From: Escherichia phage vB_EcoM_ESCO47
Sequence record: OM386662.1
Direction: 5' to 3' (one strand)
DNA: 64,000 nucleotides
Shown here: positions 7,115 through 62,358 of the stretch, piece after piece
Layout of the letters: each line of letters starts with the position of its first letter
Position numbering within the stretch: position 1 is the first letter of the stretch
Notes under the pieces: model-generated
Told to the model about the DNA's origin: nothing
The model's input: only the letters and a program-made list of their open reading frames with translations
The model's database searches: none
Made by a program: the position numbers and the translations under genes

Positions 7115-7144
7115 GTTTACACCGCTCTTAAATCATGTTACTAT
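7115..7144 (+). promoter_or_regulatory. early promoter-like element
   Basis: -35 GTTTAC 7115-7120, 18-bp spacer, -10 TACTAT 7139-7144, then conserved AGACCTATCAA; ATG at 7171. Confidence 0.5.
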
Positions 7145-7170
7145 AGACCTATCAACTACTGGAGAACAAA

Positions 7171-7488
7171 ATGAAAACTATCGATTGCAAAGCAGAGTTT
7201 AAAGTTTTTTACCATGGCTCAAGCAGTGCAGCAAACATCGAAAACATGCTTTGTCCTCCTGAAGAAACAGGTGTACTGTCTGAAACCGGACGTAAGAAAA
7301 ACCTAAATCGAGTATTCTTTACTGAAGACATTGGTTTAGCAAAGATTTATGCAGGACGAGCAGCACGATCCTATGGAGGTGAACCACGTCTTTATCGAGT
7401 AATCACTCCGGTAGACGTAGTTCAAATGAATGATACTAAAGGTGCTACGGTATATCACGCCGAATGGGCCTTCTGTGAGGAAATATGA
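7171..7488 (+). CDS. hypothetical protein (105 aa)
   Basis: Preceded by an early promoter element; contains FYHGSS motif; function not recognised. Confidence 0.5.
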   Translation: MKTIDCKAEFKVFYHGSSSAANIENMLCPPEETGVLSETGRKKNLNRVFFTEDIGLAKIYAGRAARSYGGEPRLYRVITPVDVVQMNDTKGATVYHAEWAFCEEI

Positions 7489-7673
7489 GCAAATTAACTA
7501 AAGTTACTTTTATCGGTTGGTTTAAAAGCGGTGAGATGTTCACTAAAGATATCATGTTATCAGGTGATCGCGAAGAAATCGAGTGGGTTACGGTACAACT
7601 TGCTGAAGTGAACAACGCATTAGTTAAAGCATTTGTTAATGACGAGAAAGTTTTCGAAGCAGATTTTCGATAA
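7485..7673 (+). CDS. hypothetical protein (62 aa)
   Basis: Stop/start overlap with upstream ORF; no motif recognised. Confidence 0.4.
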   Translation: MSKLTKVTFIGWFKSGEMFTKDIMLSGDREEIEWVTVQLAEVNNALVKAFVNDEKVFEADFR

Positions 7674-7686
7674 TTTTAAAATAACT

Positions 7687-7716
7687 GTTTACAGGCCCCA
7701 CATACTGTGTTACTAT
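7687..7716 (+). promoter_or_regulatory. early promoter-like element
   Basis: -35 GTTTAC 7687-7692, -10 TACTAT 7711-7716, CTATCAA downstream; ATG at 7745. Confidence 0.5.
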
Positions 7717-7744
7717 CTTTCTATCAACTACAGAGGAAATTGAA

Positions 7745-8113
7745 ATGAAAAAATTAATCGCTTTAGCAATGGTATTTGGATTAACCGGATGTGGTGCCCA
7801 TGGCTTTATCCCTAATAACGTCGGCCAATTGATTTACAATCCGAATGTTAAACAGTATGACCAACCTAAAGTTGAAGTGGAAGACCCAGTTACTGTAGGT
7901 AATCGAATGATTCAAGCTGATGCTCATGCTCAACGTTATCGTGATTCTGATACTGTAGCTGTGTCAAAAGAACAGCGCGTTAAAGAACATTGCTTACAGG
8001 CTACTGAAATCGCATTCATTCGCTATGTTGAAACAACTGGTAAAGAGCCTTCCCAGAAACAAATCGCGAATAACTACGTCCAGTGTATTGAACGTTTAAA
8101 CAAATTTAATTAA
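7745..8113 (+). CDS. putative lipoprotein (122 aa)
   Basis: N-terminal signal peptide with lipobox-like LTGC; promoter element upstream. Confidence 0.55.
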   Translation: MKKLIALAMVFGLTGCGAHGFIPNNVGQLIYNPNVKQYDQPKVEVEDPVTVGNRMIQADAHAQRYRDSDTVAVSKEQRVKEHCLQATEIAFIRYVETTGKEPSQKQIANNYVQCIERLNKFN

Positions 8114-8116
8114 TTG

Positions 8117-8146
8117 GTTTACGCCAAAGTTAAAACAAGATACTAT
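8117..8146 (+). promoter_or_regulatory. early promoter-like element
   Basis: -35 GTTTAC 8117-8122, -10 TACTAT 8141-8146; ATG at 8175. Confidence 0.5.
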
Positions 8147-8174
8147 AAACATAACAAATCAAGAGGAAATTAAC

Positions 8175-8423
8175 ATGGAATTATTCGTAGCTAGTTCAGT
8201 AGCAGTTTTAATCGCAGGTATTGGTTCAATCATCATTTACATGTTGCCTTGGGTAATCGCACTTATTCGTGGCACAAAAAGCACAACAGCAATCTTCTTT
8301 GTATCTTTACTCTTTAACTGGACGATGGTTGGTTGGATTGGAACTTTAATTTGGTCTATCGTTGCCAAAAAGAAATCGGCTCAGCAGCCTCAACAAGTAA
8401 TTATTATTCGAGAAAAAGAATAA
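8175..8423 (+). CDS. imm: superinfection-immunity (Imm-family) membrane protein
   Basis: 82 aa, two predicted TM helices; LPWVIALIRG...FNWTMVGWIGTLIW matches the conserved core of the Imm superinfection-immunity family. Confidence 0.6.
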   Translation: MELFVASSVAVLIAGIGSIIIYMLPWVIALIRGTKSTTAIFFVSLLFNWTMVGWIGTLIWSIVAKKKSAQQPQQVIIIREKE

Positions 8424-8427
8424 ACTT

Positions 8428-8462
8428 GTTTACATTATAGATGGACTATAGTATAGTAGTCC
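8428..8462 (+). promoter_or_regulatory. early promoter-like element with inverted repeat around -10
   Basis: -35 GTTTAC 8428-8433, -10 TATAGT 8452-8457 inside GGACTA...TAGTCC repeat 8443-8462; ATG at 8487. Confidence 0.5.
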
Positions 8463-8486
8463 TATCAAATCAACTAAGGAGATAAA

Positions 8487-8780
8487 ATGAAAAAGTTATC
8501 ATTGGCAGCAATCTTACTTGCAGTATCATGCGCACCGGCTCCAGTTACGGCAGGTTATGATAAAGACCTCTGTGAGTGGTCAATGACTGCAAATCAAGAA
8601 GATGTTGAACAACAAATCTTCTCTGATATCATGAACATCACTAAACGAGACCGTCCTAATATGGTTAATAAAGTTGTTGAACAACTTAAGTCTGGCGGTA
8701 TCATGCAGTACAATTATGTTTTGTATTGTGACCCTAATTTTGATAACAAAGATATCGTAACCGAAATCACAGGTGAATAA
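8487..8780 (+). CDS. sp: spackle-like periplasmic protein (superinfection exclusion)
   Basis: 97 aa with signal peptide; GYDKDLCEWSMTA...QYNYVLYCD resembles T4 Sp as I recall it; adjacent to imm-like gene. Confidence 0.6.
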   Translation: MKKLSLAAILLAVSCAPAPVTAGYDKDLCEWSMTANQEDVEQQIFSDIMNITKRDRPNMVNKVVEQLKSGGIMQYNYVLYCDPNFDNKDIVTEITGE

Positions 8781-8781
8781 T

Positions 8782-9432
8782 ATGATTTATTATATGCACA
8801 AAAATGCGCCATTTAAATATGGTAAATTTCCTAATGCACAATGTTATAATATAACGCCGAATGAAAATAATAACGGATATCATCTCGGTGTAATTTTTGT
8901 AATTGTTAAAGATAACGAAATCGTCGCCTGGGCGGATTTTAAAGGTACAACATATGATGTTAATCCTGTGCCTTTCACATATTACAATATAACGGATTTG
9001 GCATATGATTATAATTGGTTTAATCATGACACGTTGGCTCATATTGAAGGTGTAGGATTTGACATCTCTTATTCTAGCTATTCATTATGTCCTATGAGCC
9101 GAGCTCACGGTAAAGATGCATCATATCTTTCAATTCGTAAACGTGTAAACTTCAAACGTAGTACAGATTATGTTGGTGGTCTCTTTGTTAAAGATAATAA
9201 AATAACCCGTATTAGTTATCCTTTAAGTGTAGGTCAAAAAGATGTTGATGTTGATTTAGACTTAACTGAAAATAACATTAATCGTATTGCTTCTGTATAT
9301 TTTGATATCGATGAAAAAATTGTAGTGTGTGGATACGAATTACCACCTGAAGAAAAGGCTGAAGCAATTGAAGTCGAATTAGAAATTTCTGTTGATGACC
9401 AAATATTTAATGCATTTATGAATCGAGGTTAA
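8782..9432 (+). CDS. hypothetical protein (216 aa)
   Basis: Listed ORF begins at GTG 8773; first ATG at 8782 follows GGTGA; no motif recognised. Confidence 0.5.
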   Translation: MIYYMHKNAPFKYGKFPNAQCYNITPNENNNGYHLGVIFVIVKDNEIVAWADFKGTTYDVNPVPFTYYNITDLAYDYNWFNHDTLAHIEGVGFDISYSSYSLCPMSRAHGKDASYLSIRKRVNFKRSTDYVGGLFVKDNKITRISYPLSVGQKDVDVDLDLTENNINRIASVYFDIDEKIVVCGYELPPEEKAEAIEVELEISVDDQIFNAFMNRG

Positions 9433-9433
9433 A

Positions 9434-9631
9434 ATGGCTACTGCAATTTGCACTGGTTCTAAAATTAGTGTTTTTACAAGTTTTGAAGATTATGAAGTTG
9501 TTTCAAAACACCAATGCCATATTAGCGTAAAAGCTAATGACGGTGTAATTTGGAATATTCCACAGTATGAAGGCACTACATATGAAGTCACAGATATAAA
9601 TGGTGACAAAGCAATCTTTGTAATTGATTAA
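9434..9631 (+). CDS. hypothetical protein (65 aa)
   Basis: Tightly packed after upstream ORF; no motif recognised. Confidence 0.4.
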   Translation: MATAICTGSKISVFTSFEDYEVVSKHQCHISVKANDGVIWNIPQYEGTTYEVTDINGDKAIFVID

Positions 9632-9650
9632 ATATACTCAGGAGGTACCT

Positions 9651-10118
9651 ATGGGTATTATTAACACCGCAATAGATTCTGTTTACGCATATAAGTTTAT
9701 TCGACTAATGCAAAAACCTTTTACCGAATGGAAAGCATACGAAGCCAAAATTATCGATGAACGTGGAAGTGTTCTTAAACGTCCTTCTACTCCCGAAGAA
9801 AAAGCGGCGTATACACCTTTTCATGCTTCAGTTCGTTCAATGAAGCGAATGATGAGCACTGTTCCGGGTCTTAATGGAATGGCCTCAATGATGTCTGCCT
9901 GGAGTGCTGTAGCTTCACGCTATAACATTACGGAAGAACAACAGAAAGAAATATTTAAAGAACTCCCTTTATTTGAGGATATGGTTGCTGGTGATTCAGG
10001 CGGCAGTCCTCAAGCTATTGCATCAGGAACAACTACAGGTGCAGTCGTAAATAAAGGTCCAGACCAAATTCCTTCCAAGAAAAGAAAGCGAATTAAAGTA
10101 AATATTAATAAGTTGTGA
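9651..10118 (+). CDS. hypothetical protein (155 aa)
   Basis: ATG at 9651 preceded by AGGAGG; listed ORF start 9624 is upstream in frame. Confidence 0.5.
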   Translation: MGIINTAIDSVYAYKFIRLMQKPFTEWKAYEAKIIDERGSVLKRPSTPEEKAAYTPFHASVRSMKRMMSTVPGLNGMASMMSAWSAVASRYNITEEQQKEIFKELPLFEDMVAGDSGGSPQAIASGTTTGAVVNKGPDQIPSKKRKRIKVNINKL

Positions 10119-10157
10119 TAAGATGGCCTTATTAATTTAAGGCCTCTGGAGAATACT

Positions 10158-11180
10158 ATGGCTGAATGGATAGATAATGAATTTGCTTATCGTGCGTTTT
10201 CTCACCTACCTCGTTTTAGACAAATCAATAATTCAAGCACATTTAAATTAACATTTCGTTGTCCAGTTTGTGGCGACTCCCAGACAGATGCAATGAAAGC
10301 CCGCGGTTGGTATTATGGCGGTACTCCTGGCAATGTACATTGTTATAACTGTCAATATCATAATACAATTTCTGGATACTTAAAAGAGTATGATGAAGAG
10401 CTTTATCGCGAATATCTAATGGAAGTTCGTAAAGAAAAAGCTAGAATGGAACCAAAGATTGAAAAGTTTCCTGAAGCTAAGCCGGAACCAGAGAAAAAGA
10501 CTATAAATTCTTTGCCGTCTTGTTCTCGTCTGGACAAGTTGCCTGAAGAGCATCCTATTGTGAAATATGTTAAGTCTCGATGCATTCCTAAAGAATCATG
10601 GAATAGACTATGGTTCACATTAGAATGGCCTAAATTGGTCAACAAGATTCAACCAGGGACATACAAGAAAGAGATTCCTGAACCACGTTTAGTGATTCCT
10701 ATTTTTAATAAAGATGGGAAGGCCGAGTCATTCCAAGGACGTGCACTTCGTAAAGATGCTCCTCAGAAATATATCACTATTAAAGCGTTTGAGACGGCAA
10801 CGAAAATATACGGTGTTGAACGTGTTAAGGAAGGAGATGTCTGGGTAATGGAAGGTCCTATTGATAGTTTATTCATACCCAATTCAATAGCTATTACAGG
10901 CGGCTCGATAGATTTAGATATGGTACCATTTAAAGAACGTCGGGTATGGGTAATGGATAATGAACCTAGGCATCCGGATACTATAGCTCGTATGAAACGT
11001 TTGGTAGATGCAGGCGAACGTGTCATGTTCTGGGATAAAGCTCCATGGAGATCAAAGGATGTGAATGATATGGTAATGAAAGAAAATGCAACACCAAATG
11101 AAATCCTTGAATATATGAAACAGAATATTTCAAGTGGGTTGCATGCTAAAATGAGATTATCTAAATATTCTAAAATTTAG
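10158..11180 (+). CDS. 61: DNA primase gp61
   Basis: 340 aa; zinc-ribbon CPVCGDS...CYNC and near-colinear match to T4 gp61 as I recall it. Confidence 0.95.
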   Translation: MAEWIDNEFAYRAFSHLPRFRQINNSSTFKLTFRCPVCGDSQTDAMKARGWYYGGTPGNVHCYNCQYHNTISGYLKEYDEELYREYLMEVRKEKARMEPKIEKFPEAKPEPEKKTINSLPSCSRLDKLPEEHPIVKYVKSRCIPKESWNRLWFTLEWPKLVNKIQPGTYKKEIPEPRLVIPIFNKDGKAESFQGRALRKDAPQKYITIKAFETATKIYGVERVKEGDVWVMEGPIDSLFIPNSIAITGGSIDLDMVPFKERRVWVMDNEPRHPDTIARMKRLVDAGERVMFWDKAPWRSKDVNDMVMKENATPNEILEYMKQNISSGLHAKMRLSKYSKI

Positions 11181-11374
11181 ACCAATCCTACTAGTGCAAA
11201 AGCAATATCAACTACTGTGTCAAGAGGCACAGAAGGAACGATAATACCGTTAGCAACTAGCAATGGAGCAATACCGAAATTCCAAGAAATGATTCCACCA
11301 ATAACAACAGCGGCTAAAATCGTTTTCTTTTTATGTCCTTTGATAGCGGCGATTAACAACGGTAACTTAAGCAT
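11177..11374 (-). CDS. small membrane protein (65 aa), antisense to the early-gene flow
   Basis: Hydrophobic; GGAG 9 nt upstream of ATG; paralogous to the adjacent minus-strand ORF. Confidence 0.5.
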   Translation of the reverse strand: MLKLPLLIAAIKGHKKKTILAAVVIGGIISWNFGIAPLLVANGIIVPSVPLDTVVDIAFALVGLV

Positions 11375-11570
11375 GCAAATTAACTCCGATTGCTTTGATT
11401 ATTGAAAGTATATGCTGTAACTCCACTTGTGGTAATATAATAGCTTGAGTTGCGGCCAATGGAACTATTACTAGATTCCATACTAAAACGTCCACAGCAA
11501 GAAAAAAGAATATCAACTTACGTGATTCTTTATTTGTTAACTTCCAGATTTGATAGAACACAGTTCCCAT
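11367..11570 (-). CDS. small membrane protein (67 aa), antisense to the early-gene flow
   Basis: AGGAGG 4 nt upstream of ATG; overlaps downstream ORF by 8 nt; shared WN(F/L)xI(A/V)PL core with its neighbour. Confidence 0.5.
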   Translation of the reverse strand: MGTVFYQIWKLTNKESRKLIFFFLAVDVLVWNLVIVPLAATQAIILPQVELQHILSIIKAIGVNLHA

Positions 11571-11598
11571 AAATCCTCCTACGTTATAGGTTTATTTA

Positions 11599-11623
11599 TG
11601 CTTTTTATCAGGTTTGGTATAAT
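11599..11623 (+). promoter_or_regulatory. candidate middle promoter upstream of gene 56
   Basis: TGCTTT 11599-11604 followed 13 bp later by -10 TATAAT 11618-11623. Confidence 0.4.
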
Positions 11624-11658
11624 TAACATCTCTTAAACATGAATTGAAAGGAAATAAA

Positions 11659-12180
11659 ATGGCGCACTTTAACGAATGTTCACAACTGATTGCTGGTGTT
11701 GATAAAGCTGAAGAAGCTTATTTTAATGCTCTTATTCACGAAGATAAAGACCCGTTGCAGGTAATGCTTGATATGCAGAAATCTTTACAGGTTCGTCTGG
11801 CAAATGACAAGCCTGAACATAACAAACATCCTGATGAATTGGCCACTGCTGGTGAAGTCGTTGATTGGCTACGCAATCAGAAAGATTATATTGACGATGA
11901 ATTCCGTGAACTTCTGACTTCTCTTGGTGGTATGAGCAATGGTGAAAAAGCCGCCAGCAGTGTATGGAAGCCGTGGAAGGCGCAACATGCTGAATATCGA
12001 AATCGTCGTATCGATGAACTGTCTCCTGAAGACCAGCTTGAAATCAAATTTGAAATGATTGATATTCTCCATTTCGTTCTGAATATGTTCCAAGGTCTTG
12101 GTCTTACTGCTGAAGAAATCTTTAAATTGTACTACCTGAAGAACAAACATAATTTTGAACGCCAGGATAATGGATATTAA
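11659..12180 (+). CDS. 56: dCTP pyrophosphatase gp56 (dCTPase/dUTPase-like)
   Basis: MAHFNEC...DPLQVMLDMQ...YYLKNK...RQDNGY matches T4 gp56 as I recall it; listed ORF starts at TTG 11644, ATG at 11659. Confidence 0.9.
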   Translation: MAHFNECSQLIAGVDKAEEAYFNALIHEDKDPLQVMLDMQKSLQVRLANDKPEHNKHPDELATAGEVVDWLRNQKDYIDDEFRELLTSLGGMSNGEKAASSVWKPWKAQHAEYRNRRIDELSPEDQLEIKFEMIDILHFVLNMFQGLGLTAEEIFKLYYLKNKHNFERQDNGY

Positions 12181-12182
12181 GA

Positions 12183-12190
12183 TATAAATA
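12183..12190 (+). promoter_or_regulatory. late promoter (TATAAATA) for soc
   Basis: Exact TATAAATA 29 nt upstream of the soc ATG. Confidence 0.7.
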
Positions 12191-12218
12191 CACCTGTAAT
12201 TAACTAAAGGAGTAAATT

Positions 12219-12470
12219 ATGGGTGGATATGTAAATATCAAAACGTTCGACCATGAAGTAGCAGGTGGTACAGTAGAAGGTACCGAGGTTTCTGTTGCAT
12301 TTGAAGTTTATTCTAATGCTCATCGAATCTCAGGTGCGCACTATCAGACTTTCCCGTCTGAAGAACCAGCCTATGATACTGTGGTTGACACCGCAGATGA
12401 TTGGGCAACAGCAAATGAAGCTATGTTTACCCCAGAACCTGCACCGGTTCCTCCAGGACCCGGTGCATAA
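12219..12470 (+). CDS. soc: small outer capsid protein Soc
   Basis: 83 aa; GYVNIKTF...VSVAF..Y...H.ISGAHYQTFPSE matches T4 Soc as I recall it; TATAAATA late promoter upstream. Confidence 0.85.
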   Translation: MGGYVNIKTFDHEVAGGTVEGTEVSVAFEVYSNAHRISGAHYQTFPSEEPAYDTVVDTADDWATANEAMFTPEPAPVPPGPGA

Positions 12471-12480
12471 GTTAATTATA

Positions 12481-12506
12481 AGGAATCCTTCGGGATTCCT
12501 TTTTTC
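12481..12506 (+). terminator. rho-independent terminator after soc
   Basis: AGGAATCC-TTCG-GGATTCCT then TTTTT. Confidence 0.7.
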
Positions 12507-12515
12507 GTTTCTACA

Positions 12516-12545
12516 GTTTACATCCTTGTAAAACAGTGTTATAGT
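12516..12545 (+). promoter_or_regulatory. early promoter-like element
   Basis: -35 GTTTAC 12516-12521, -10 TATAGT 12540-12545, then AGTCCTATCAA; ATG at 12574. Confidence 0.5.
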
Positions 12546-12573
12546 AGTCCTATCAAAACAAGAGGAGAACACT

Positions 12574-12789
12574 ATGTTAAATCGTTGGATTAAACCTAAT
12601 CAAACCTTAGATGAAGTTATTGCTCGTCAGGTTATACAGAAATATGATCTTCAACTATGGTATGCTGAAGTTGTTGTGCATTCATTCATGATGCATGCTG
12701 ATGGCTCAGTCGAATTTAATGCAGAAATCCGTAATGATTTTGAAGATGAAGGCCTGCCTAAAGTTGCATTTGTAAGAGGGTTCTTATAA
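12574..12789 (+). CDS. hypothetical protein (71 aa)
   Basis: Early promoter element and RBS upstream; no motif recognised. Confidence 0.45.
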   Translation: MLNRWIKPNQTLDEVIARQVIQKYDLQLWYAEVVVHSFMMHADGSVEFNAEIRNDFEDEGLPKVAFVRGFL

Positions 12790-13130
12790 TGTTTAAGTGG
12801 TTTAAAGAATTGTTTGCTTCCACCCCAGGACAAGGAATGGTTCCTATTGATACCCATGCACCTAAAAAAGAGTATATCTACGCGGGTGATGGTATGATGG
12901 AAGAAGTGGTTTGTCCGGCTGAAAAAGCAGATAATGTTGGACAGGTGGCATCTAGTTTAAACGCGTCAGAGTTAAAGTCTCAATTAGAAAAATTAAAAGA
13001 AGAACGTTCTCAAAGGCAAACATACATAGACGCTGCGGCAATAACGACAGTAGCTTCTGTAAGCTCATGGTCTGGGGATTCCTGTTCAAGTTCTTCTGAT
13101 TGTAGTTCAAGCTCTGGGAGCTGCGACTAA
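12789..13130 (+). CDS. hypothetical protein with Ser/Cys-rich C-terminal tail
   Basis: 113 aa; C-terminus SWSGDSCSSSSDCSSSSGSCD. Confidence 0.45.
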   Translation: MFKWFKELFASTPGQGMVPIDTHAPKKEYIYAGDGMMEEVVCPAEKADNVGQVASSLNASELKSQLEKLKEERSQRQTYIDAAAITTVASVSSWSGDSCSSSSDCSSSSGSCD

Positions 13131-13309
13131 TGAATAAAATTGTCAAGTGGTTTAAAAGTTGGAACGATGGTATTGAGCATAAAGACTGGCTTGATGTTCT
13201 TGATGAGAATTTATCTAAAGAGATTCAAGAACACGAAAAGAAGCAAGTTGAAGCCGAAGGTATCCGTCTTGTGAAACTTTATATGGGCGAACCTAGGAGA
13301 ACATTATGA
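13130..13309 (+). CDS. hypothetical small protein (59 aa)
   Basis: TAATG stop/start overlap with upstream ORF; below the ORF-track length cutoff. Confidence 0.3.
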
Positions 13310-13455
13310 CGTGTACCAAAGAAGCTGAAGCCAGAGCAAAGGAAGCTTTAGATTTGCTTCTCAAAATCGGTAGTAAAATGATGGAAGAGAACGAAAAATA
13401 CATCCAAGAAAATAAAACTCCGGATGGTCCATTAGTTGGTAAGAGGAAATCATAA
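13306..13455 (+). CDS. hypothetical small protein (49 aa)
   Basis: ATGA overlap with upstream ORF and ends exactly at the next ATG; below the ORF-track cutoff. Confidence 0.3.
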
Positions 13456-13853
13456 TGAAAGCTAATTTATACCACATACATATCGACGGTCAAAAATTCC
13501 CTATTGAAGTATTGATCCCTAGTGAGTGGTCAGCGTATAACACTGAAATGTACCGGCGCATTGAAGAACAGTTTTTAACGAGTATTTCTCCTAAAGGTTA
13601 CGAAGTAGAAATCCGACTGGCCGGTGAATTCCACTATGACCCATCTTCGCCATTTGACGTAAGTGAAATCATCATTAATAAAGGATTCGTTAGTCCTGGC
13701 AATAGTTCGTCTCTTTATGGTTACATAAACGATATCATTATCTGCGGAAATAAATTCAGTATATTCCATGAAGAAGACTTGAGAGAGTTCAAAAAGTTGG
13801 TATGGAACTACTTCGGTGAAACCGGGTTTAATTTTATTAAGGCGCCTAAATGA
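13455..13853 (+). CDS. hypothetical protein (132 aa), paralog of next gene
   Basis: Shares SSPFDVSEIIINKGFVSPGN-type block with the downstream ORF. Confidence 0.5.
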   Translation: MKANLYHIHIDGQKFPIEVLIPSEWSAYNTEMYRRIEEQFLTSISPKGYEVEIRLAGEFHYDPSSPFDVSEIIINKGFVSPGNSSSLYGYINDIIICGNKFSIFHEEDLREFKKLVWNYFGETGFNFIKAPK

Positions 13854-14332
13854 TGGCTAAAATACTCGAATTAGAATTTTATATTCGTGATAACCGTGGC
13901 CAAACTCGTCCTTATGATGACACAGTTTGCGTTATCTTAGTACCATCTGACACTAGTAACAGTTCATCTGAAAGCCTCGAAAAGGCTATTAATAGTATGG
14001 CTCTTCCTGAAAACGTTATGCTTAAAATAAAGCATAATAAAAATGTTGAGATGCAACCAGGTAGCCCATTTACAGTAGTAGAAGCATTGCTGATTAAAGG
14101 TTATAGTTATCCTAACAACAGATCAGAAGGCGAGAACTCTAAAGAAATTTTCTTTACAACTCCTGATAAAGACTGTCTCGAAGGACGAAGCTATCTTGTA
14201 GGAAGCACTTCTGACGTACTCGAAATCCAACGTCAGATCTGGACGCATTTTGATATCGGACTTCGCTTTACGTTAACAGAGTCAGCCCTTCTAGAACAAT
14301 CTCTTCGTCGACGCATGTACGGTGGTTTCTAA
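13850..14332 (+). CDS. hypothetical protein (160 aa), paralog of previous gene
   Basis: GSPFTVVEALLIKGYSYPNN block similar to the upstream ORF; ATGA overlap. Confidence 0.5.
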   Translation: MMAKILELEFYIRDNRGQTRPYDDTVCVILVPSDTSNSSSESLEKAINSMALPENVMLKIKHNKNVEMQPGSPFTVVEALLIKGYSYPNNRSEGENSKEIFFTTPDKDCLEGRSYLVGSTSDVLEIQRQIWTHFDIGLRFTLTESALLEQSLRRRMYGGF

Positions 14333-55432: not shown

Positions 55433-55933
55433 ATGAACATGCAATTGATTACTAATGATATGGTTGTAGCAGCATTTGGGGATTCAACCGACGGCATCCA
55501 AGTCTTTAAGAAAGGACGTGCAGTTGGTTACCTCACTGATCTTCGTACTACCCTGGCTAAAAATGCTAAAAAGAAGGTGAAGCAAAAGGAATACTCTACA
55601 CGATATGTTGAAGAAAAACGCGAAGCAATGCCGGAAGCAGTAAACGCAATGGTAGAGTTCCTTCAAAACAATCTGTCTAAATATGACGCTAATGTGTTCA
55701 TTAATATTAGTCAACCTAATGTTCATATTGCTGATAACAAATTTTATATCATTTGCGATCCTTTGTCTGATAAATTCAATCGTCTCGGAATTTCAAGCCC
55801 TTATCATACAGCAGAAGAGTTGTGTGTACTGTTTGAGACTTATAAAATCCAATGTGATGGTCCTAAGACAGTCTTGATTAATGGTTTGTCCCGAGACGAA
55901 ATCATTGAGATTATTGAAAAATGCTTAAAGTAA
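55433..55933 (+). CDS. alc: Alc-like transcription termination protein (by position)
   Basis: 166 aa; between rnlA and pseT as in T4; no diagnostic motif. Confidence 0.6.
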   Translation: MNMQLITNDMVVAAFGDSTDGIQVFKKGRAVGYLTDLRTTLAKNAKKKVKQKEYSTRYVEEKREAMPEAVNAMVEFLQNNLSKYDANVFINISQPNVHIADNKFYIICDPLSDKFNRLGISSPYHTAEELCVLFETYKIQCDGPKTVLINGLSRDEIIEIIEKCLK

Positions 55934-56277
55934 ATCCGATTTATGCTGTCATCGGAGCATTTGCTCTGGTTTCAGTGGTTACAATAGTTTTCTTAAATCA
56001 TAAAGTTGACTCGTTAACAACCGAATTGACCACAGTTAAACAGGTCGCTAAAAACAACGCTGAAGCGTTAGATTCATTCAAGATTCAATATGAGTCCATT
56101 AAAACCATGACTTATAAGAATCAGGCATTAGTTGAGCAAATTAAGGCTGAAAATGAAAAACTCCGGAAGGATGCGAAGAAGAGCAGCGTGGTGGCAAAGA
56201 AACCAGGACTCGTCGAGAACCAAATCAACAAGTCCTTTAACGCCTATGCAGAAGACCTCAGGAAGCTTTCAGAATGA
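55921..56277 (+). CDS. inner-membrane spanin-like protein
   Basis: N-terminal TM anchor followed by coiled-coil-type sequence; precedes lipoprotein gene. Confidence 0.55.
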   Translation: MLKVNPIYAVIGAFALVSVVTIVFLNHKVDSLTTELTTVKQVAKNNAEALDSFKIQYESIKTMTYKNQALVEQIKAENEKLRKDAKKSSVVAKKPGLVENQINKSFNAYAEDLRKLSE

Positions 56278-56564
56278 TTAAATTATCTGTACTTGTATTA
56301 TCTATTGGTCTTTTGGTTGGATGTGCTCAGGACATTCCTGTAAGCCCTAAAGAGACTTTACACCCATCATGGCCTAGTCCTATTGCAGAGTATAACCAAA
56401 AATGGCAAGTTAAAGTCATTGACGGTATTCCATGGGTAGGTATGCCTTTTGAAGACTCTCAAGAATTCCGAATCTGGATGAATGACGTAAAAAGATATGT
56501 ACATGACCAGAAAACTATGATATGTTATTATCGTAGTGGTTTAAAAGAGGACAAATGCAAATGA
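56274..56564 (+). CDS. outer-membrane spanin-like lipoprotein
   Basis: Signal peptide with lipobox LLVGC; ATGA coupling to the upstream i-spanin-like gene. Confidence 0.55.
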   Translation: MIKLSVLVLSIGLLVGCAQDIPVSPKETLHPSWPSPIAEYNQKWQVKVIDGIPWVGMPFEDSQEFRIWMNDVKRYVHDQKTMICYYRSGLKEDKCK

Positions 56565-56779
56565 CACCTACTCAACTAGAACATCTTAAAGGGTTGATCT
56601 ATGAGTCTGAAATGGCCGCAATGATTTACGGACGGCAGATTCAACGTTTAGAATCTTTACCTCCTTCAGGTGACCCACTGATAGTTCAGTCTAGAGCTAA
56701 TCTTAAAAATGAGTACCAAAACAAGTGGGGCAAAGCGGCCAATGCACTTCATGAGTACATTCAAACTCTAGTAAAATAG
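56555..56779 (+). CDS. hypothetical protein (74 aa)
   Basis: Immediately upstream of pseT. Confidence 0.45.
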   Translation: MQMTPTQLEHLKGLIYESEMAAMIYGRQIQRLESLPPSGDPLIVQSRANLKNEYQNKWGKAANALHEYIQTLVK

Positions 56780-56814
56780 TTGTACAAACTCTTGGGAGCA
56801 GAGTATAATGCTCC
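56780..56814 (+). promoter_or_regulatory. promoter-like element (TTGTAC type) with inverted repeat, upstream of pseT
   Basis: TTGTAC 56780-56785, -10 TATAAT 56804-56809; arms GGAGCA 56795-56800 and TGCTCC 56809-56814; near-identical to element at 29011. Confidence 0.5.
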
Positions 56815-56826
56815 TATGGACAATAA

Positions 56827-57743
<917 letters not shown>

Positions 57744-57744
<1 letters not shown>

Positions 57745-57935
57745 TGAAACTATTATATGAAGTGATTGAGGCCATCGAACAGCATAAAGAATATTTGTTT
57801 GTAGCCTGGCCTTTAGTAAATGGACAGTTCGGTATTGATGTGCTGGACTATGAGCATGAAGAACGTTTGGACGGTGGTATATTTGATAACGTCGACCAGG
57901 CAATTGAATGGTTAAATGAAAACTATGTACGATAA
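57744..57935 (+). CDS. hypothetical protein (63 aa)
   Basis: Overlaps pseT stop. Confidence 0.4.
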
Positions 57936-58140
57936 ACATCATGAAATCGAAGATGAAGCATACAAAATGCTTCGTAAACTAGTGGGACTTAATATGAGTC
58001 CTACATTAATCAACAAACTCGCAGGAATTCGTAATGATCTGAATACTCGTTACAAAGGCGAATATCATGTAGAGTTTGTTCCTGTAGGTGAACCGACCGA
58101 GCGATTTGTTGTTCGAGTTAAAGTAAATACTGTACACTGA
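57916..58140 (+). CDS. hypothetical protein (74 aa)
   Basis: Overlaps upstream ORF. Confidence 0.4.
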   Translation: MKTMYDKHHEIEDEAYKMLRKLVGLNMSPTLINKLAGIRNDLNTRYKGEYHVEFVPVGEPTERFVVRVKVNTVH

Positions 58141-58147
58141 GGTAATT

Positions 58148-58423
58148 ATGTTCCCAACTTATTCTGAAATTGTAAAGGTAGTCTTCAGTCAGATTATTGC
58201 TAATAATATGTTTGAAGTGCTTGATAATGCAGCCGAACTCAGAGTTCATGCTCAACTAACTCATGTACTCAATGCTTTGCTCCCGGACCAAGTAGATTCT
58301 ATTGCTATTACTCTTCTCCCTGGGTCTGCACACGTCATAGTGGTATTTGATCTTGACGGCGATTTAGTTATCCAATGTGATATCAATTTCGGTACACAAA
58401 AAATTGAATGCAAAGCAATTTAA
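58148..58423 (+). CDS. hypothetical protein (91 aa)
   Basis: No motif recognised. Confidence 0.45.
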   Translation: MFPTYSEIVKVVFSQIIANNMFEVLDNAAELRVHAQLTHVLNALLPDQVDSIAITLLPGSAHVIVVFDLDGDLVIQCDINFGTQKIECKAI

Positions 58424-58425
58424 TG

Positions 58426-58455
58426 GTTTACAACATGGTGGAGTTGTGATACTAT
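58426..58455 (+). promoter_or_regulatory. early promoter-like element
   Basis: -35 GTTTAC 58426-58431, -10 TACTAT 58450-58455; ATG at 58484. Confidence 0.5.
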
Positions 58456-58483
58456 AACTCTACCAACAAATGAGGAAATAGAA

Positions 58484-58720
58484 ATGCTAAGTGAAAACCC
58501 AATTACAGTACACGAATTTCAGATTAAAGTAAAAGAATTTGCTCAAGCACTCATCAATAAAGTGTCTGAACGTTTCCAAGATGCAACATTACGAGTTATT
58601 CAAGAATCTCCACGTTCTTTTCTCATAATCGTTAATCCTAAAGACGGTGACCAAATTACTAATCTTAAATTAGGCAGTGATGGTCTTGTTGAAGCAACTC
58701 GAGTATATGGAACACTATAA
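58484..58720 (+). CDS. hypothetical protein (78 aa)
   Basis: Promoter element and GAGGAA RBS upstream. Confidence 0.45.
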   Translation: MLSENPITVHEFQIKVKEFAQALINKVSERFQDATLRVIQESPRSFLIIVNPKDGDQITNLKLGSDGLVEATRVYGTL

Positions 58721-58828
58721 TGAGAGCTATCTCATTACTATCGAGAATGGTCATAAATCTGAGCACTACCAACTTAGCCTGTCTAATCCGGTTAAAGGTA
58801 TTGTTGTTTATATCTCCTAAGGATTGTT

Positions 58829-59821
58829 ATGTTACCTGTCATCAGAAAACTTATTTCTCCAAAAGAACTGGCTGAGATTATTCCTTTGTCGGAAGCTTAC
58901 GCATCACAAGTGGCTTCTCATCGCGAACAAGTTAATTCGATTATGAACGGTGAAGACCCACGCAAACTTATTGTTGTAGGTCCTTGTTCAATTCATGACC
59001 CTATTGCTGCTGTTGAATACGGCAAACGTCTGGCTGAACTTCAAACTCGTCTTCCTAATGTTCTGTTAGTGATGCGCGTTTATTTTGAAAAGCCTCGAAC
59101 TACCGTAGGTTGGAAAGGTCTTGTAAATGATCCATATCTTGACGGAAGTTTTGATATGAACCACGGTCTTATAGTTGCACGAACATTGTGTCGTAAACTT
59201 CTGCGTATGGGACTTCCATTAGCAACTGAAGTATTAGACCCATTCACGATTAAGTATCTTTCTGGTATTTTCTCATGGGTTGCTATTGGCGCCCGTACGA
59301 CTGAAAGTCAGACACATCGTGAAATTGCTTCAGGTCTACCGATGTGCGTAGGCTTCAAGAACGCAACCAATGGTTCTATTAAAGTAGCTACAGACGCGAT
59401 GTATAGTGCCGCCCAGCCTCATCGGTATATGGGTATGGACGTCGATGGTACTGTAGGCATTGTTGAAGCTGAAGGTAATCAGAATACGCATATCGTATTG
59501 CGTGGTGGGACTAACGGTCCGAACTATCATTCTTCTGATATTCAAGAAGCTTCTAACAAAGCAAGTGCGGTAGGTCTGAATCATTATGTAATGGTTGACT
59601 GTAGCCATGCAAACGCTGGTGGGTATTATAGCAATCAAATTGATATTGGTAAAAATTTAGCAGCTAATGATTTGGTCAAAGGAATTATGATAGAATCATT
59701 CCTACATGAAGGAAATCAAAAAATTTCTGATAATATGTCCTATGGCGTTTCCATTACCGATGCGTGCATCAGTTGGGAACAAACTAAAGAGCTGTTAACT
59801 TATATTAATAAGGTTCAATAA
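58829..59821 (+). CDS. 3-deoxy-D-arabino-heptulosonate-7-phosphate (DAHP) synthase, class I AroG/AroF/AroH-like
   Basis: 330 aa; hallmark motifs GPCSIHD, RVYFEKPRTTVGWKGL, GARTTESQ, GFKN and ESFLHEGNQ; AAGGA RBS. Confidence 0.85.
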   Translation: MLPVIRKLISPKELAEIIPLSEAYASQVASHREQVNSIMNGEDPRKLIVVGPCSIHDPIAAVEYGKRLAELQTRLPNVLLVMRVYFEKPRTTVGWKGLVNDPYLDGSFDMNHGLIVARTLCRKLLRMGLPLATEVLDPFTIKYLSGIFSWVAIGARTTESQTHREIASGLPMCVGFKNATNGSIKVATDAMYSAAQPHRYMGMDVDGTVGIVEAEGNQNTHIVLRGGTNGPNYHSSDIQEASNKASAVGLNHYVMVDCSHANAGGYYSNQIDIGKNLAANDLVKGIMIESFLHEGNQKISDNMSYGVSITDACISWEQTKELLTYINKVQ

Positions 59822-60402
59822 TGAAAGCTAGCACATATCTTCAAATTGCTTATTTGATTTCTCAAGAATCAAAATGTTGTTCATGGAAAGTTGGTGCCGT
59901 CATTGAAAAAGATGGACGCATTATCTCTACTGGATATAATGGTTCACCTGCAGGTGGCGTTAACTGTTGCGAACAGGCATCCGAAAATGGTTGGTTGAAG
60001 AATAAACCGAGTCCGGTCATCGTTGCTGGACATAAAGAAGGCACTACGGCATTTGGACGGGCAGATAATTTTGTTTTGGCTAAAGAACATCGAGCGGCTC
60101 ATAGTGCATGGTCTGCTAATAATGAAATCCATGCTGAACTGAATGCAATTTTATTTGCAGCTCGTAAAGGTAATTCTATTGAAGGTGCTACGTTGTATAC
60201 GACGCTTTCTCCGTGTCCTGATTGCACTAAAGCTATTACACAGTCGGGTATTAAAAAGGTTGTATACGCAGAATTATATGACAGATCTCCTGAAAATTGG
60301 GCAGACATTCTTAAACAAGCTGGTATTGAAGTAATTCAGTACTCTCGTAATAATCTTCGTTCTCTGAATTGGGAACAAATCCGAAACTTTTGTGGTGAAT
60401 AA
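59821..60402 (+). CDS. cd: dCMP deaminase
   Basis: 193 aa; zinc-binding HAELNAI and SPCPDCT motifs. Confidence 0.9.
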   Translation: MKASTYLQIAYLISQESKCCSWKVGAVIEKDGRIISTGYNGSPAGGVNCCEQASENGWLKNKPSPVIVAGHKEGTTAFGRADNFVLAKEHRAAHSAWSANNEIHAELNAILFAARKGNSIEGATLYTTLSPCPDCTKAITQSGIKKVVYAELYDRSPENWADILKQAGIEVIQYSRNNLRSLNWEQIRNFCGE

Positions 60403-60403
60403 T

Positions 60404-60700
60404 ATGATTTTAACTGAACAAGAAACTACGGTTCTTCGTGAACGTATTAAAACTATTCTGTCTGTAGGCGTTCATTGTGTTGTATTTGAAAAGGCTAATG
60501 GTGATGTTCGTACGATGTTTGCCTCCCGCGATGAACTTGAAGTCAAATATGAAAATAGAAATCCGGCAACAGAAGTTCGTTCTGAACCTCGTGAATCAGT
60601 TCGAGCATTCGATACCAAGTTAGGTCAGTGGCGTTCTTTTCGCCTTGATAAAGTAATTTCGGTTGATGGTACTCCGGTAGAACGTTTGCTTCTTCTGTAA
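60404..60700 (+). CDS. hypothetical protein (98 aa)
   Basis: ATG 60404 just after cd stop; listed ORF begins at GTG 60392. Confidence 0.5.
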   Translation: MILTEQETTVLRERIKTILSVGVHCVVFEKANGDVRTMFASRDELEVKYENRNPATEVRSEPRESVRAFDTKLGQWRSFRLDKVISVDGTPVERLLLL

Positions 60701-60702
60701 TT

Positions 60703-60727
60703 TGCTTTACGTTTAATATGTTATTAT
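60703..60727 (+). promoter_or_regulatory. candidate MotA-dependent middle promoter upstream of gene 31
   Basis: MotA box core TGCTTTA 60703-60709, 12-bp spacer, -10 TATTAT 60722-60727. Confidence 0.45.
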
Positions 60728-60757
60728 TAATCTATCGTTAAACAAAAAGGAAATAAG

Positions 60758-61090
60758 ATGTCTGAAGTACAACTCCCAATTCGTGCTGTTGGTGAATATG
60801 TTATTCTGGTTTCTGAACCCGCTCAAGCAGGTGATGAAGAAGTTACCGAATCAGGACTTGTGATTGGTAAACGTGTTCAAGGTGAAGTTCCTGAACTATG
60901 TGTAGTTCATTCTGTAGGTCCTGATGTTCCTGAAGGTTTCTGTGAAGTTGGTGATTTGACTCCACTACCAGTTGGACAAATTCGAAATGTTCCACATCCA
61001 TTTGTGGCTTTAGGACTTAAACAACCTAAAGAAATTAAACAGAAATTTGTCACTTGTCATTACAAAGCAATCCCGTGTCTTTATAAGTGA
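60758..61090 (+). CDS. 31: co-chaperonin gp31 (GroES-like)
   Basis: 110 aa; matches T4 gp31 as I recall it. Confidence 0.9.
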
Positions 61091-61098
61091 TATAAATA
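61091..61098 (+). promoter_or_regulatory. late promoter motif (TATAAATA) downstream of gene 31
   Basis: Exact TATAAATA immediately after the gene 31 stop, upstream of the rIII-like gene. Confidence 0.5.
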
Positions 61099-61216
61099 AT
61101 AATATGAATTGAGTTCCAATTCTATGAGGTAGTCTACAACTGAGAGATCTGTCGAAAGAAGATGAAATTCAGAAGAACGTGACTACCAAGTTTTAATCTC
61201 TAACGAGAATTTTTAA

Positions 61217-61465
61217 ATGATTAAACAATTACAACACGCTCTCGAACTGCAACGCTCTGCATGGAACAACGGTCACGAAAACTACGGTGCATCAATTGAT
61301 GTTGAAGCCGAAGCACTGGAAATCCTGCAGTATTTCAAACATCTGAATCCTGTCCAAGCTGATCTTCGTGATGTTCTGGCTCAGAAAGATGAACTGAAAT
61401 ATGCTAAGCCTCTGGCTTCTGCCGCACGTAAAGCAGTTCGTCATTTTGTTATTACTTTGAAATAA
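61217..61465 (+). CDS. rIII: rIII-like lysis inhibition accessory protein
   Basis: 82 aa; position after gene 31; MIKQLQHALELQR... resembles T4 rIII as I recall it. Confidence 0.65.
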   Translation: MIKQLQHALELQRSAWNNGHENYGASIDVEAEALEILQYFKHLNPVQADLRDVLAQKDELKYAKPLASAARKAVRHFVITLK

Positions 61466-61628
61466 TTGCTATCATGCGTCAGCAAAAGGTTAGCTGTGTA
61501 AGTCATGGTAGGTATGATGACAGGTTTATGGTTATCCTGTCGGTAAATATACAAAACCTATGTTCCCCTCGAGGGCTTACGCAGGCAATGTCAATAAGTC
61601 CTGCATTTTCATTTAAAGAGAATTTATA

Positions 61629-61808
61629 ATGGCAAAACAAGCTAAAGCAAAGAAAGCAGTTGAAAAGAAAGTTGATGGTACCTCTAAACGCGCTGGATAC
61701 AAGCGTGGGTCGAACTCTCGTATTAATCAAACCGTTGAGAAGATCATGCGCAGAGCACGTGCAGTTCTTCGAGATGATGCTTCTCGTTTTGGAAAGGTTG
61801 TTGCATAA
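61629..61808 (+). CDS. small basic protein (59 aa)
   Basis: Lys/Arg-rich; followed by a strong terminator; weak RBS; below the ORF-track cutoff. Confidence 0.4.
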   Translation: MAKQAKAKKAVEKKVDGTSKRAGYKRGSNSRINQTVEKIMRRARAVLRDDASRFGKVVA

Positions 61809-61813
61809 TTTTA

Positions 61814-61836
61814 GGGAGACTTCGGTCTCCCTTTTG
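61814..61836 (+). terminator. rho-independent terminator
   Basis: GGGAGAC-TTCG-GTCTCCC then TTTT; same hairpin sequence as at 47685. Confidence 0.75.
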
Positions 61837-61872
61837 TGCGTTTAGGGCAGAAAAAGTTTAAAAAAAAAAGAT

Positions 61873-61902
61873 GTTTACTCTCCTGTAGGATGTGTTACTA
61901 TA
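61873..61902 (+). promoter_or_regulatory. early promoter-like element
   Basis: -35 GTTTAC 61873-61878, -10 TACTAT 61897-61902; ATG at 61943. Confidence 0.5.
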
Positions 61903-61942
61903 GACTTGTACCACCTAATCAATAAAACAACCGGAGAATAAA

Positions 61943-62314
61943 ATGAACACTATCAATTTAAATGCTACAATTAAATGCCGTGACCATGATGGATATAAAT
62001 CTCAAGTTGTTAACGAGTTACAGTGGATGGTTCGTTCAGTTCAAGGTGATGTGGTTTATTGTACAACTCCTGATGGCCCTTCAGACGATTTTTGTTATCA
62101 TATCGAAATCGAAAACTTTTTCACTGGTGAAATTTACCGTCTGAATTCTACAGTTTATGGCTGTATTCGTTCTAAAACTTACGAAGATGAAGAAACTGGT
62201 TACTCTGAAGATGTTGTATGGTACGAAAACGCCAGAAATCGCGCAGAGACATTAATCGAGAAGATTAAAGCAAAAGGTGTTATTGATTCAGCTAAGTGGA
62301 CAAAAATCAAATAA
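61943..62314 (+). CDS. hypothetical protein (123 aa)
   Basis: Promoter element and GGAG RBS upstream. Confidence 0.5.
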   Translation: MNTINLNATIKCRDHDGYKSQVVNELQWMVRSVQGDVVYCTTPDGPSDDFCYHIEIENFFTGEIYRLNSTVYGCIRSKTYEDEETGYSEDVVWYENARNRAETLIEKIKAKGVIDSAKWTKIK

Positions 62315-62318
62315 AAAT

Positions 62319-62358
62319 GTTTACTTTGGTACAGGATATGTTATTATATACCTGTACC
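62319..62358 (+). promoter_or_regulatory. early promoter-like element with inverted repeat
   Basis: -35 GTTTAC 62319-62324, -10 TATTAT 62342-62347; arms GGTACAGG 62328-62335 and CCTGTACC 62351-62358; ATG at 62389. Confidence 0.5.

Follow-up and report, generated by a model that had tools for sequence, protein, structure and literature searches.

Several T4-type phages carry promoter-early stem-loop (PeSL) cassettes, which were described in phi1/RB49 (Arbiol et al., 2010; PMC2839356) and later in PST/T4 and nt-1/KVP40 (Comeau et al., 2014; PMC4122927). In the published description, a PeSL comprises a sigma-70-type early promoter with an AT-rich upstream region and a stem-loop that lies mostly between the -35 and -10 hexamers or overlaps the -10, followed by a Shine-Dalgarno (SD) sequence and an ATG (PMC2839356). 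RB69 is not mentioned in these two papers, and the words translation, ribosome and sequester are absent from them. The present analysis deals with a family of 24 early promoters, part of them with embedded inverted repeats, in Escherichia phage vB_EcoM_ESCO47 (record OM386662.1), within a stretch of 64,000 nucleotides referred to here as the window. We consider it probable that these are sigma-70 early promoters of the RB69-like (Mosigvirus) type, that ~9-12 of the 24 encode a hairpin able to fold only in read-through RNA, and that in one group of them (class B) this hairpin hides the ribosome-binding site of the downstream gene.

In RB69, 57 early promoters were predicted and C at -3 to -1 was noted (Nolan et al., 2006; PMC1524935); that study makes no mention of inverted repeats, hairpins or stem-loops, and no such early-promoter hairpins are described in the review of T4 transcription. 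A related arrangement is known from the T4 genes e, soc, 49 and I-TevI, in which the SD and/or the AUG is paired in long transcripts started upstream, while an internal promoter gives rise to a shorter RNA, devoid of the 5' arm, from which translation takes place (PMC3014915). Full-text searches, which do not reach the older T4 literature, returned no paper on SD occlusion by hairpins embedded in early promoters.

Nucleotide searches placed the window in the RB69 group of T4-type coliphages, with an identity to phages of this group of ~87% over 79% of positions 7000-20000 and of ~88% over 95-99% of positions 44400-64000. Its orientation is the reverse of that of the RB69 record, and the + strand carries its early genes. 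IMG/VR contains few close relatives of the window, and the RB69 and T4 records were added from a phage collection. The promoter matrix was scanned over 47 IMG/VR loci, two RB69 segments and the window, and later, at a lower threshold, over a T4 segment (L050). Class counts and start-site composition refer to 123 non-redundant promoters from many T4-like lineages; the sequences of this comparative sample are related to each other.

The strict pattern GTTTAC-N16-19-TAYWRT has 15 matches in the window, all on the + strand, vs 0.49 expected, and CCTATCAA has nine matches vs 2.2 expected. The search with an iterated two-block, phage-specific matrix gave cleanly bimodal scores: 22 + strand sites scored above 20 and all other sites 10 or less, the best one on the minus strand reaching 9.5. 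Two weaker intergenic sites, at 56780 (pseT) and 60700 (gene 31), correspond to positions of promoters or orthologous genes in RB69 and T4, and bring the total to 24, all on the + strand; the count of at least 23 promoters of one architecture given in an earlier note on this DNA is thereby confirmed. This architecture consists of GTTTAC, 17-18 nt (16 nt at the weak site 60700), TAnnnT and then AG(A/T)CCTATCAA. In the window and the 49 fetched loci the matrix recovered 209 promoters (186 unique sequences) and in the T4 segment 12 more, none of them antisense. A scan with a generic sigma-70 consensus was not enriched over shuffles (71 vs 67.6; 58 vs 60.8), indicating that the family follows a phage-specific consensus.

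A+T makes up 76% of the 22 nt upstream of the -35 (62% in the window as a whole), with an A-rich stretch between -8 and -3 counted from the hexamer. In 97 of the 123 promoters an A stands seven bases after the -10, with C/C/T at -3 to -1, and this composition, together with its match to the observations of Nolan et al. (2006), indicates that AG(A/T)CCTATCAA comprises the discriminator, the +1 A and the bases transcribed first. The likeness to the RB69/T4 early consensus thus covers the GTTTAC -35, the TAnnnT -10, the A-rich UP-like region and the C at -3 to -1 (PMC1524935; PMC2988021), and many of the promoters predicted in RB69 lie upstream of the same genes as in the window (PMC1524935). In all 24 window promoters an ATG is found 44-65 nt downstream of the first base of the -10 hexamer, preceded in most by an SD-like motif (none at 33826, weak at 18487). 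Within the first 12 nt of the spacer, the anti-SD tetramers CTCC, CCTC and TCCT show a 7- to 10-fold enrichment. Further compositional traits concern positions -6 to +8 and -16 to -13: from base 4 to base 14 after the -10, G hardly ever occurs (in no more than 2 of 123 promoters at most positions), and the four bases that precede the -10 contain no C in any promoter. The downstream genes, named by tblastn against RB69 and T4, run from the ORF040c-like gene to cef in the 5' part of the window, from the ORF270c-like gene to frd.1 in the middle and from rnlA to 30.7 in the 3' part (ORF, open reading frame). With a T4/RB69 early-gene ortholog behind each of them, these are, on sequence grounds, early promoters, as had been proposed in the earlier note.

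Perfect repeats of at least 8 bp that bracket the -10 are present in 5 of 22 promoters vs 0.65 expected from exchanging left and right halves among promoters, and none of 5000 such permutations reached five promoters. In nine of the 24 (8428, 18487, 19052, 28238, 28750, 48183, 56780, 58426 and 62319), RNA folding compared with 200 shuffles gave z values between -2.4 and -6.3, with at most 3 of the 200 shuffles as stable. The promoter at 54192 is marginal, ten others, including 14597 and 61873, fold no better than shuffles, and those at 15340, 33826, 44438 and 60700 were folded without a shuffle control. The three arm pairs quoted in the earlier note, at 48193, 62328 and 18495, are exact, and complementarity clearly exceeds that of the controls; its estimate that about half of the copies carry arms was generous, given that robust hairpins amount to ~38% of the 24 promoters and to about half only when marginal ones are counted.

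Most of these hairpins adopt one of two registers. Class A hairpins have their 5' arm at spacer positions 4 to ~14 upstream of the -10 and a 3' arm (-7 to about +7) that begins with the final -10 base; the extended -10 sits in the ~8-nt loop between them. Class B hairpins start 1-3 nt beyond the -35 with a 5' arm that is an anti-SD run such as TTCTCC, and their 3' arm is the SD of the downstream gene. Class A is represented in the window at 8428, 28238, 28750, 48183, 56780, 58426 and 62319, and class B clearly at 19052 and more weakly at 14597, 61873 and 12516. Among the 123 non-redundant promoters, 33 belong to class A and 19 to class B, and 17 are classed as other. Loops measure 6-16 nt in class A (4 nt if wobble pairs extend the stem) and 16-43 nt in class B. 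That the 3' arm coincides with the SD in 19 of 19 class B cases follows from how the class is defined, and the match specifically reaches beyond the SD into neighboring bases. Both classes are present in T4 itself. The promoters of the window are the following.

7115-7151 (+): ORF040c-like promoter; -35 at 7115-7120, -10 at 7139-7144, putative start at ~7151; no hairpin (z=+0.65)
7687-7723 (+): imm.1 promoter; no significant hairpin (z=+1.8)
8117-8153 (+): imm promoter; no hairpin
8428-8466 (+): sp promoter; class A, 8440-8449 GATGGACTAT / 8456-8466 GTAGTCCTATC, with one bulge; -11.1 kcal/mol, z=-2.9
12516-12552 (+): mrh.2 promoter; weak anti-SD pairing, CTTGT/ACAAG plus TCC/GGA; z=+0.6
14597-14648 (+): modA promoter; weak SD-occluding hairpin, 14626-14632 TTCTCCT / 14642-14648 AGGAGAA; z=-0.9, not significant alone
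15340-15375 (+): srd promoter; no hairpin bracketing the -10
18487-18536 (+): motB-like promoter; 9-bp repeat, 18495-18503 CCTCTGTAG / 18528-18536 CTACAGAGG; z=-3.2
19052-19102 (+): motB.2 promoter; class B, 19058-19068 TTCTCCTCTAG / 19092-19102 CTAGAGGAGAA, the latter being the SD; -18.9 kcal/mol, z=-5.5
19634-19670 (+): cef promoter; no significant hairpin (z=-0.8)
28238-28275 (+): ORF270c-like promoter; class A, 28250-28259 GTAGGACTAT / 28266-28275 GTAGTCCTAT; z=-2.4
28750-28788 (+): ndd.1 promoter; class A with G.U pairs, 28761-28771 GGTAGGATTAT / 28778-28788 GTAGTCCTATC; z=-4.6
31330-31365 (+): motA promoter; no hairpin (z=+0.4), a terminator-like hairpin upstream
33826-33861 (+): asiA promoter; no hairpin
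44438-44474 (+): rnh promoter; no hairpin, divergent from gene 34, no same-strand gene upstream
47733-47768 (+): frd.2 promoter; no significant hairpin (z=+0.3)
48183-48222 (+): frd.1 promoter; strongest class A, 48193-48204 AGATAGGGCTAT / 48211-48222 GTAGCCCTATCT; -19.8 kcal/mol, z=-6.3
54192-54228 (+): rnlA promoter; spacer/-10 hairpin, 54198-54205 ATACCACA / 54211-54218 TGTGGTAT, then TTTTT; z=-1.9
55375-55411 (+): alc promoter; no class B hairpin, nor in RB69; z=-1.2
56780-56820 (+): pseT promoter, weaker; -35 TTGTAC, score 10; class A, 56790-56800 TCTTGGGAGCA / 56809-56820 TGCTCCTATGGA; z=-4.0
58426-58465 (+): cd.2 promoter; class A, 58436-58448 TGGTGGAGTTGTG / 58453-58465 TATAACTCTACCA; z=-5.6
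60700-60734 (+): gene 31 weak promoter-like site; score 9.6; no hairpin
61873-61937 (+): 30.8 promoter; weak long-range anti-SD/SD pairing, 61879-61886 TCTCCTGT / 61930-61937 ACCGGAGA; z=-0.4, not significant alone
62319-62360 (+): 30.7 promoter; class A, 62326-62335 TTGGTACAGG / 62351-62360 CCTGTACCAA, extending inward; -18.2 kcal/mol, z=-5.4

The class A register was evaluated on 118 promoter cores not selected for pairing, with 500 shuffles. Paired cells amounted to 49.9% vs 45.2 +/- 0.9 in the shuffles, the covariation score was 0.237 vs 0.182, and cells changed on both sides numbered 203 vs 134; none of the 500 shuffles reached any of the observed values and all slid registers were lower. 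Runs of at least six pairs occur in 15 of the 123 promoters vs 1.7 expected, and in the class A register only. With regard to composition, the 5' arms of class A are purine-rich and SD-like (GGAG, AGGA), and the 3' arms are anti-SD-like (CTCC, TCCT).

The resemblance to PeSL cassettes pointed out in the earlier note agrees with the published description (PMC2839356): the window presents promoters with ~17-nt spacing, an AT-rich upstream region, a stem-loop (in 9 of 24, the rest being plain promoters) and an SD plus ATG, and it shares with PeSLs the tolerated G-T pairs and the many copies per genome, and may share the location of PeSLs at indel junctions between related phages. The stems of the window differ in that they are not of the GGGG...CCCC type of phi1/RB49, do not lie upstream of the promoter as drawn for PST and have no U tract. 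The PeSL papers give no account of two fixed registers, of a 3' arm overlapping the SD or of an own start placed inside the repeat.

At orthologous promoters the pairing is kept with different arms, as the earlier note had proposed for the copies within the window; this was observed for alc, motB.2, frd.1, 30.7 and cd.2. The alc promoter, located downstream of rnlA, bears an SD-occluding hairpin of 9-17 bp in 13 lineages including T4, a strong example of this type of hairpin, and lacks it in the window and RB69. Its arms are as different across lineages as TCTCCATTTGGTTG, ATCCTCATCAG, CCTCGTTTGTT and CCTCTCGTTTTTG. Since the register of the arms varies from lineage to lineage, RNAalifold returned no structure for 20 MAFFT-aligned alc-promoter orthologs, and a comparison of native folds with cross-lineage chimeras was used in its place; in the 13 lineages, native folds averaged -20.5 kcal/mol vs -10.9 for the chimeras. 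The motB.2 hairpin reads TTCTCCTCTGGTT/AACCAGAGGAGAA in RB69, L005 and L009, with a compensatory A-T to G-C change relative to the window, and in T4-like phages this promoter maintains the pairing with different arms. Orthologs of the frd.1 promoter in other genera display class A hairpins with other arms (e.g., GGTGTAAGAT, GGTGTAGAGG and GTTGATAGGGT). The cd.2 promoter of T4 has GGTAGAGTT/AGCTCTACC, with the wobble pair at another position than in the window, and the arms of the 30.7 promoter are the same in RB69 and T4 and different in L030, L033, L036 and L037. Orthologs of the 30.8 promoter show TTCTCC...GGAGAA, and the arms of the ORF270c-like promoter at 28238 are identical in RB69. The orthologs of promoter 7115 in RB69 and L005 contain a class B hairpin of 11-14 bp, TTCTCCAGTAG(TTG)/(CAA)CTACTGGAGAA, which the window copy does not have. 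As a separate observation in T4 (L050), the early promoters at 136336 (upstream of alc) and 123093 (alt.-3/alt.-2 region) agree fully in -35, spacer and -10 and almost fully in the leader, AAGTCCCTCGTGTTGTGT TATAGT AGTCTTACT.ACATAACATGAGGA; this cassette is duplicated at two distant sites.

These comparisons make it highly improbable that the arms have no function and are by-products of templated (quasi-palindrome) mutation, of cassette recombination or of a partly palindromic consensus. The consensus is indeed partly self-complementary, with a higher shuffled baseline in the class A register; the sequence at 18487 resembles a recombinant leader with an orphan SD; and the hairpin of 7115 exists in RB69 and not in the window, the alc promoter showing the reverse pattern in other lineages. 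Yet at the same orthologous promoter many arm sequences preserve the pairing in distant genera, the excess over shuffles and slid registers is large, the window and RB69 have the same arms next to differing leaders, and the depletion of hairpins after terminators, described below, is not predicted by such an origin.

The 5' arms are located in the spacer or the discriminator, upstream of the start site, which was placed 7 nt after the -10 and which, like the read-through transcripts and all functional consequences considered here, is inferred. With the start inside the repeat, only read-through RNA can fold, and the promoter's own transcript cannot. According to the proposed mechanism, the own-start transcript would lack the 5' arm and remain unfolded, a transcript from an upstream promoter would contain both arms and fold, and the repeat would thus distinguish two mRNA forms of each gene. 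In class B the fold would hide the ribosome-binding site, and the gene would be translated mainly from its own early promoter.

The predicted probability that the SD is unpaired supports this distinction for class B, being 0.60 in own-start RNA vs 0.03 in read-through RNA; scrambling of the 5' arm raised the latter to 0.21 (P=8e-6). At the individual promoters of the window, the corresponding predicted values were 0.82 vs 0.00 at 19052 (motB.2) and 0.84 vs 0.00 at 61873 (30.8); at 14597 (modA), where the 5' arm is the discriminator, they were 0.07 in own-start and 0.01 in read-through RNA. Among 120 promoters with an identified SD, strong occlusion was predicted in 32.5% of the read-through forms, and in 11-13% when the upstream part was shuffled or taken from random genomic sequence (P=0.001 and 0.003), two controls that replaced a swap of upstream halves between promoters.

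The logic proposed for class B would be that of T4 e, soc, 49 and I-TevI, with an early instead of a late promoter inside the hairpin: in both cases the SD is paired in the long form (by prediction in the window), and the start, here a putative one, leaves a short RNA without the 5' arm. In the T4 genes a late promoter (gp55, TATAAATA) delays expression, whereas the early sigma-70 promoters of the window would confine translation to the early transcript; class B is therefore analogous to these genes and not a member of their group.

In class A the ribosome-binding site would stay open in read-through RNA. Scrambling of the class A 5' arm left the SD 0.43 unpaired vs 0.50 in the native form (P=0.04), and it may be speculated that class A keeps the SD free by tying up the anti-SD-like discriminator. 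Most likely, class A insulates or attenuates read-through RNA or stabilizes the 3' end of the upstream RNA, along the lines of the 'attenuator' idea put forward for PeSLs; this is the least certain step of the mechanism.

The published interpretation of PeSLs, in which the stem-loops are terminators or attenuators of upstream RNA polymerase as well as recombination sites for cassette shuffling, with no translational role, was weighed against the same data and appears unlikely as a full account of the window. It draws on the fact that one PeSL stem-loop of phi1 placed between a promoter and lacZ lowered expression as much as the rrnB T1 terminator (PMC2839356), a drop in a reporter that cannot separate termination from other effects. 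A U tract (at least 5 T in the next 8 nt) followed 0 of 33 class A and 0 of 19 class B hairpins, and their tails are A-rich; with no U tract after any of these 52, they are not canonical intrinsic terminators. The sole exception with a T run is the atypical hairpin at 54198-54218, whose TTTTT is in favor of the published interpretation; RB69 has the stem without the T run. This hairpin, flagged as terminator-like, may be a true terminator-promoter overlap for denA and rnlA. That the SD is untouched by class A hairpins also fits a purely transcriptional role, for which the class B match to the SD and its flanking bases would be needless.

Genuine terminators are present in the window as well.

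7091-7108, 12480-12501, 20914-20929, 22795-22812, 47685-47702 and 53758-53773 (+): intrinsic terminators, each a G+C-rich hairpin followed by a T run

They are of the classic T4-type kind: five of the six have a UUCG tetraloop, a loop frequent among intergenic terminator hairpins of T4-type phages, and the one at 53758-53773 has UUAG. As stable intergenic hairpins of the sense-strand RNA, the promoter-embedded repeats resemble intrinsic terminators; the true terminators (e.g., 12480-12501 and 47685-47702) are G+C-rich, with UUCG loops and a T run, and lie upstream of the -35, whereas the repeats have loops of 6-43 nt and A-rich tails. Across the sample, class A or B hairpins occur at 2 of 16 promoters directly after an intrinsic terminator vs 50 of 107 elsewhere (P=0.013), a depletion that is expected if the hairpins act on read-through RNA and not as a property of promoter DNA. 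It is also expected under the published interpretation if hairpins and terminators are redundant. In the window, the promoters without upstream same-strand read-through (7115, 12516, 47733 and 44438) have no significant hairpin, and the terminators 7091-7108, 12480-12501 and 47685-47702 lie directly upstream of the first three.

A DNA-structure-dependent site, as contemplated in the earlier note, is another matter. The hairpins might be extruded as cruciforms, or form in supercoiled or single-stranded DNA, and modulate melting or target recombination or nuclease proteins; we regard this as highly improbable, and a DNA-level role is not supported. Large loops disfavor cruciform extrusion, and those of class B (16-43 nt) and class A (6-16 nt) are unfavorable in this respect. 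The constant placement of class A with respect to the -10, which sits in an 8-nt loop, would suit such an element, and the authors of the PeSL studies speculated on a stem-loop DNA-binding protein; extrusion, however, would alter the -35/-10 geometry needed by sigma-70, and neither the involvement of the SD, whose arm is meaningful only in RNA, nor the depletion after terminators has a rationale at the DNA level. G.T outnumbers A.C among interior mismatches (14:8) and flanking positions (40:25), and in 44 of 68 cases the sense RNA has a higher stability than the antisense RNA; both results lean toward sense RNA, but genomic controls show the same bias. The wobble asymmetry is compatible with DNA, while the frequency of G.T pairs in the stems speaks against it. 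N4 virion RNA polymerase promoters are DNA hairpins with 5-7 bp stems and 3-nt loops, which serve a phage polymerase in single-stranded DNA; the window shares with them an inverted repeat at the promoter and differs in having sigma-70 duplex promoters and loops of at least 6 nt (4 nt with wobble extension). An operator for a dimeric protein was also considered and rejected, as arm sequences vary from copy to copy.

Several observations weigh against translational gating through read-through RNA. Upstream halves swapped between promoters occlude the SD like the native ones (0.36 vs 0.35), which indicates that the anti-SD is a generic promoter feature and might be constrained by promoter function instead of translation. 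Class A hairpins leave the SD 0.50 unpaired by prediction, and the complementarity of this class is partly contained in the consensus (GGA in the spacer, TCC in the discriminator), raising the shuffled baseline to 45% paired. The promoter sequences are related, so that shuffle controls overstate significance. Random genomic windows share the sense-strand bias (P=0.31). Only one strong class B hairpin exists in the window (19052), and the 3' arm at 18487 is SD-like with the ORF starting 21 nt further on (18557). Start sites and read-through were, moreover, deduced from sequence.

Several of the differences in gene content between the window and RB69 lie at promoters, which agrees in part with the suggestion in the earlier note that the elements may lie at recombination-prone module boundaries. 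Four of five whole-gene indels in this single pairwise comparison (ORF041c, gp61.4, ORF245c and ORF230c/231c) end inside or beside a promoter. Both ends of the ORF041c indel fall in promoter spacers (window 7121 and 7139), the other three adjoin promoters 7687, 47733 and 56780, respectively, and the extra ORF245c of RB69 is directly behind its copy of the frd.2 promoter. Replacement blocks begin or end at 14588, 18496 and 19053. Junctions in or beside promoters are anticipated by the published PeSL interpretation, but they also occur at hairpin-less promoters such as 7115, the site of the ORF041c junction, where shared promoter sequence is enough to explain recombination. About a quarter of the gene junctions carry a promoter anyway, and the insertion of a DAHP synthase gene and several other junctions involve none. 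The proposed association with boundaries is plausible in this small sample; the pattern fits recombination between conserved promoter sequences with the hairpin not required.

At 18487, where similarity to RB69 breaks at 18496, the leader TCTATCAACTACAGAGG is common to promoters 18487 and 7687 (18516-18557 and 7717-7745). An SD-like AGAGG there has no start codon behind it, and the motB-like ORF has a poor SD; the leader looks like a relic of cassette shuffling, yet it has a perfect 9-bp partner in the spacer.

Other features of the window were noted in passing. Positions 34845-38469, with minus-strand genes of the distal long-tail-fiber region (gene 37/38 equivalents), have no nucleotide similarity to RB69 and look like a replaced host-range module. 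The whole mrh region (12.7-14.6 kb) is highly diverged, and within it the block 13308-14331, which codes for two T4 MRH-like family proteins in tandem (13455-13853 and 13850-14332), has no similarity to RB69 at the nucleotide level. Between cd.2 and cd, an ORF of 330 aa at 58829-59821 (+) belongs to the DAHP synthetase I family (Pfam E=1e-75); the block 58736-59817 has no RB69 counterpart, is annotated as aldolase or DAHP synthase in other RB69-group phages and shows no early promoter at either boundary. Rfam 15 yielded no RNA family at gathering score in the whole window.

Early promoters of RB69 (2006) and PeSLs in other T4-type phages (2010 and 2014) were known already, and the promoters themselves are textbook, so that the finding mainly adds an RB69-like phage to the PeSL catalogue. 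What is new, judging from sequence comparison and predicted folds, are the two registers, the own start inside the repeat, the covariation of arms between genera and the predicted occlusion of the ribosome-binding site in class B. The additional contribution is mechanistic and resides in a fold that would form in read-through RNA only, would cover the ribosome-binding site in one class and keeps its pairing across genera. That the repeats would act only on read-through mRNA, with one class gating translation, can be regarded as a well-supported refinement of the earlier note.

A broader possibility, which we advance tentatively, is that across T4-type phages many early promoters are mRNA-form-specific switches, in which the anti-SD of the untranscribed spacer silences the downstream gene on read-in transcripts and class A constitutes a second device. 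If this is true, proteins such as Alc in T4 and MotB.2 in the window would be made only from their own immediate-early promoter, their synthesis ending at early shut-off, and class A would act on read-through RNAs, for instance by sequestering the anti-SD-like discriminator or by insulating cistrons. Temporal control would thereby have a general layer that has so far gone undescribed, encoded in promoter DNA and acting in RNA. If confirmed, it would help to explain how some proteins are confined to the first minutes despite ongoing early and middle transcription from upstream, and would provide an annotation rule for which mRNA form of an early gene is translated.

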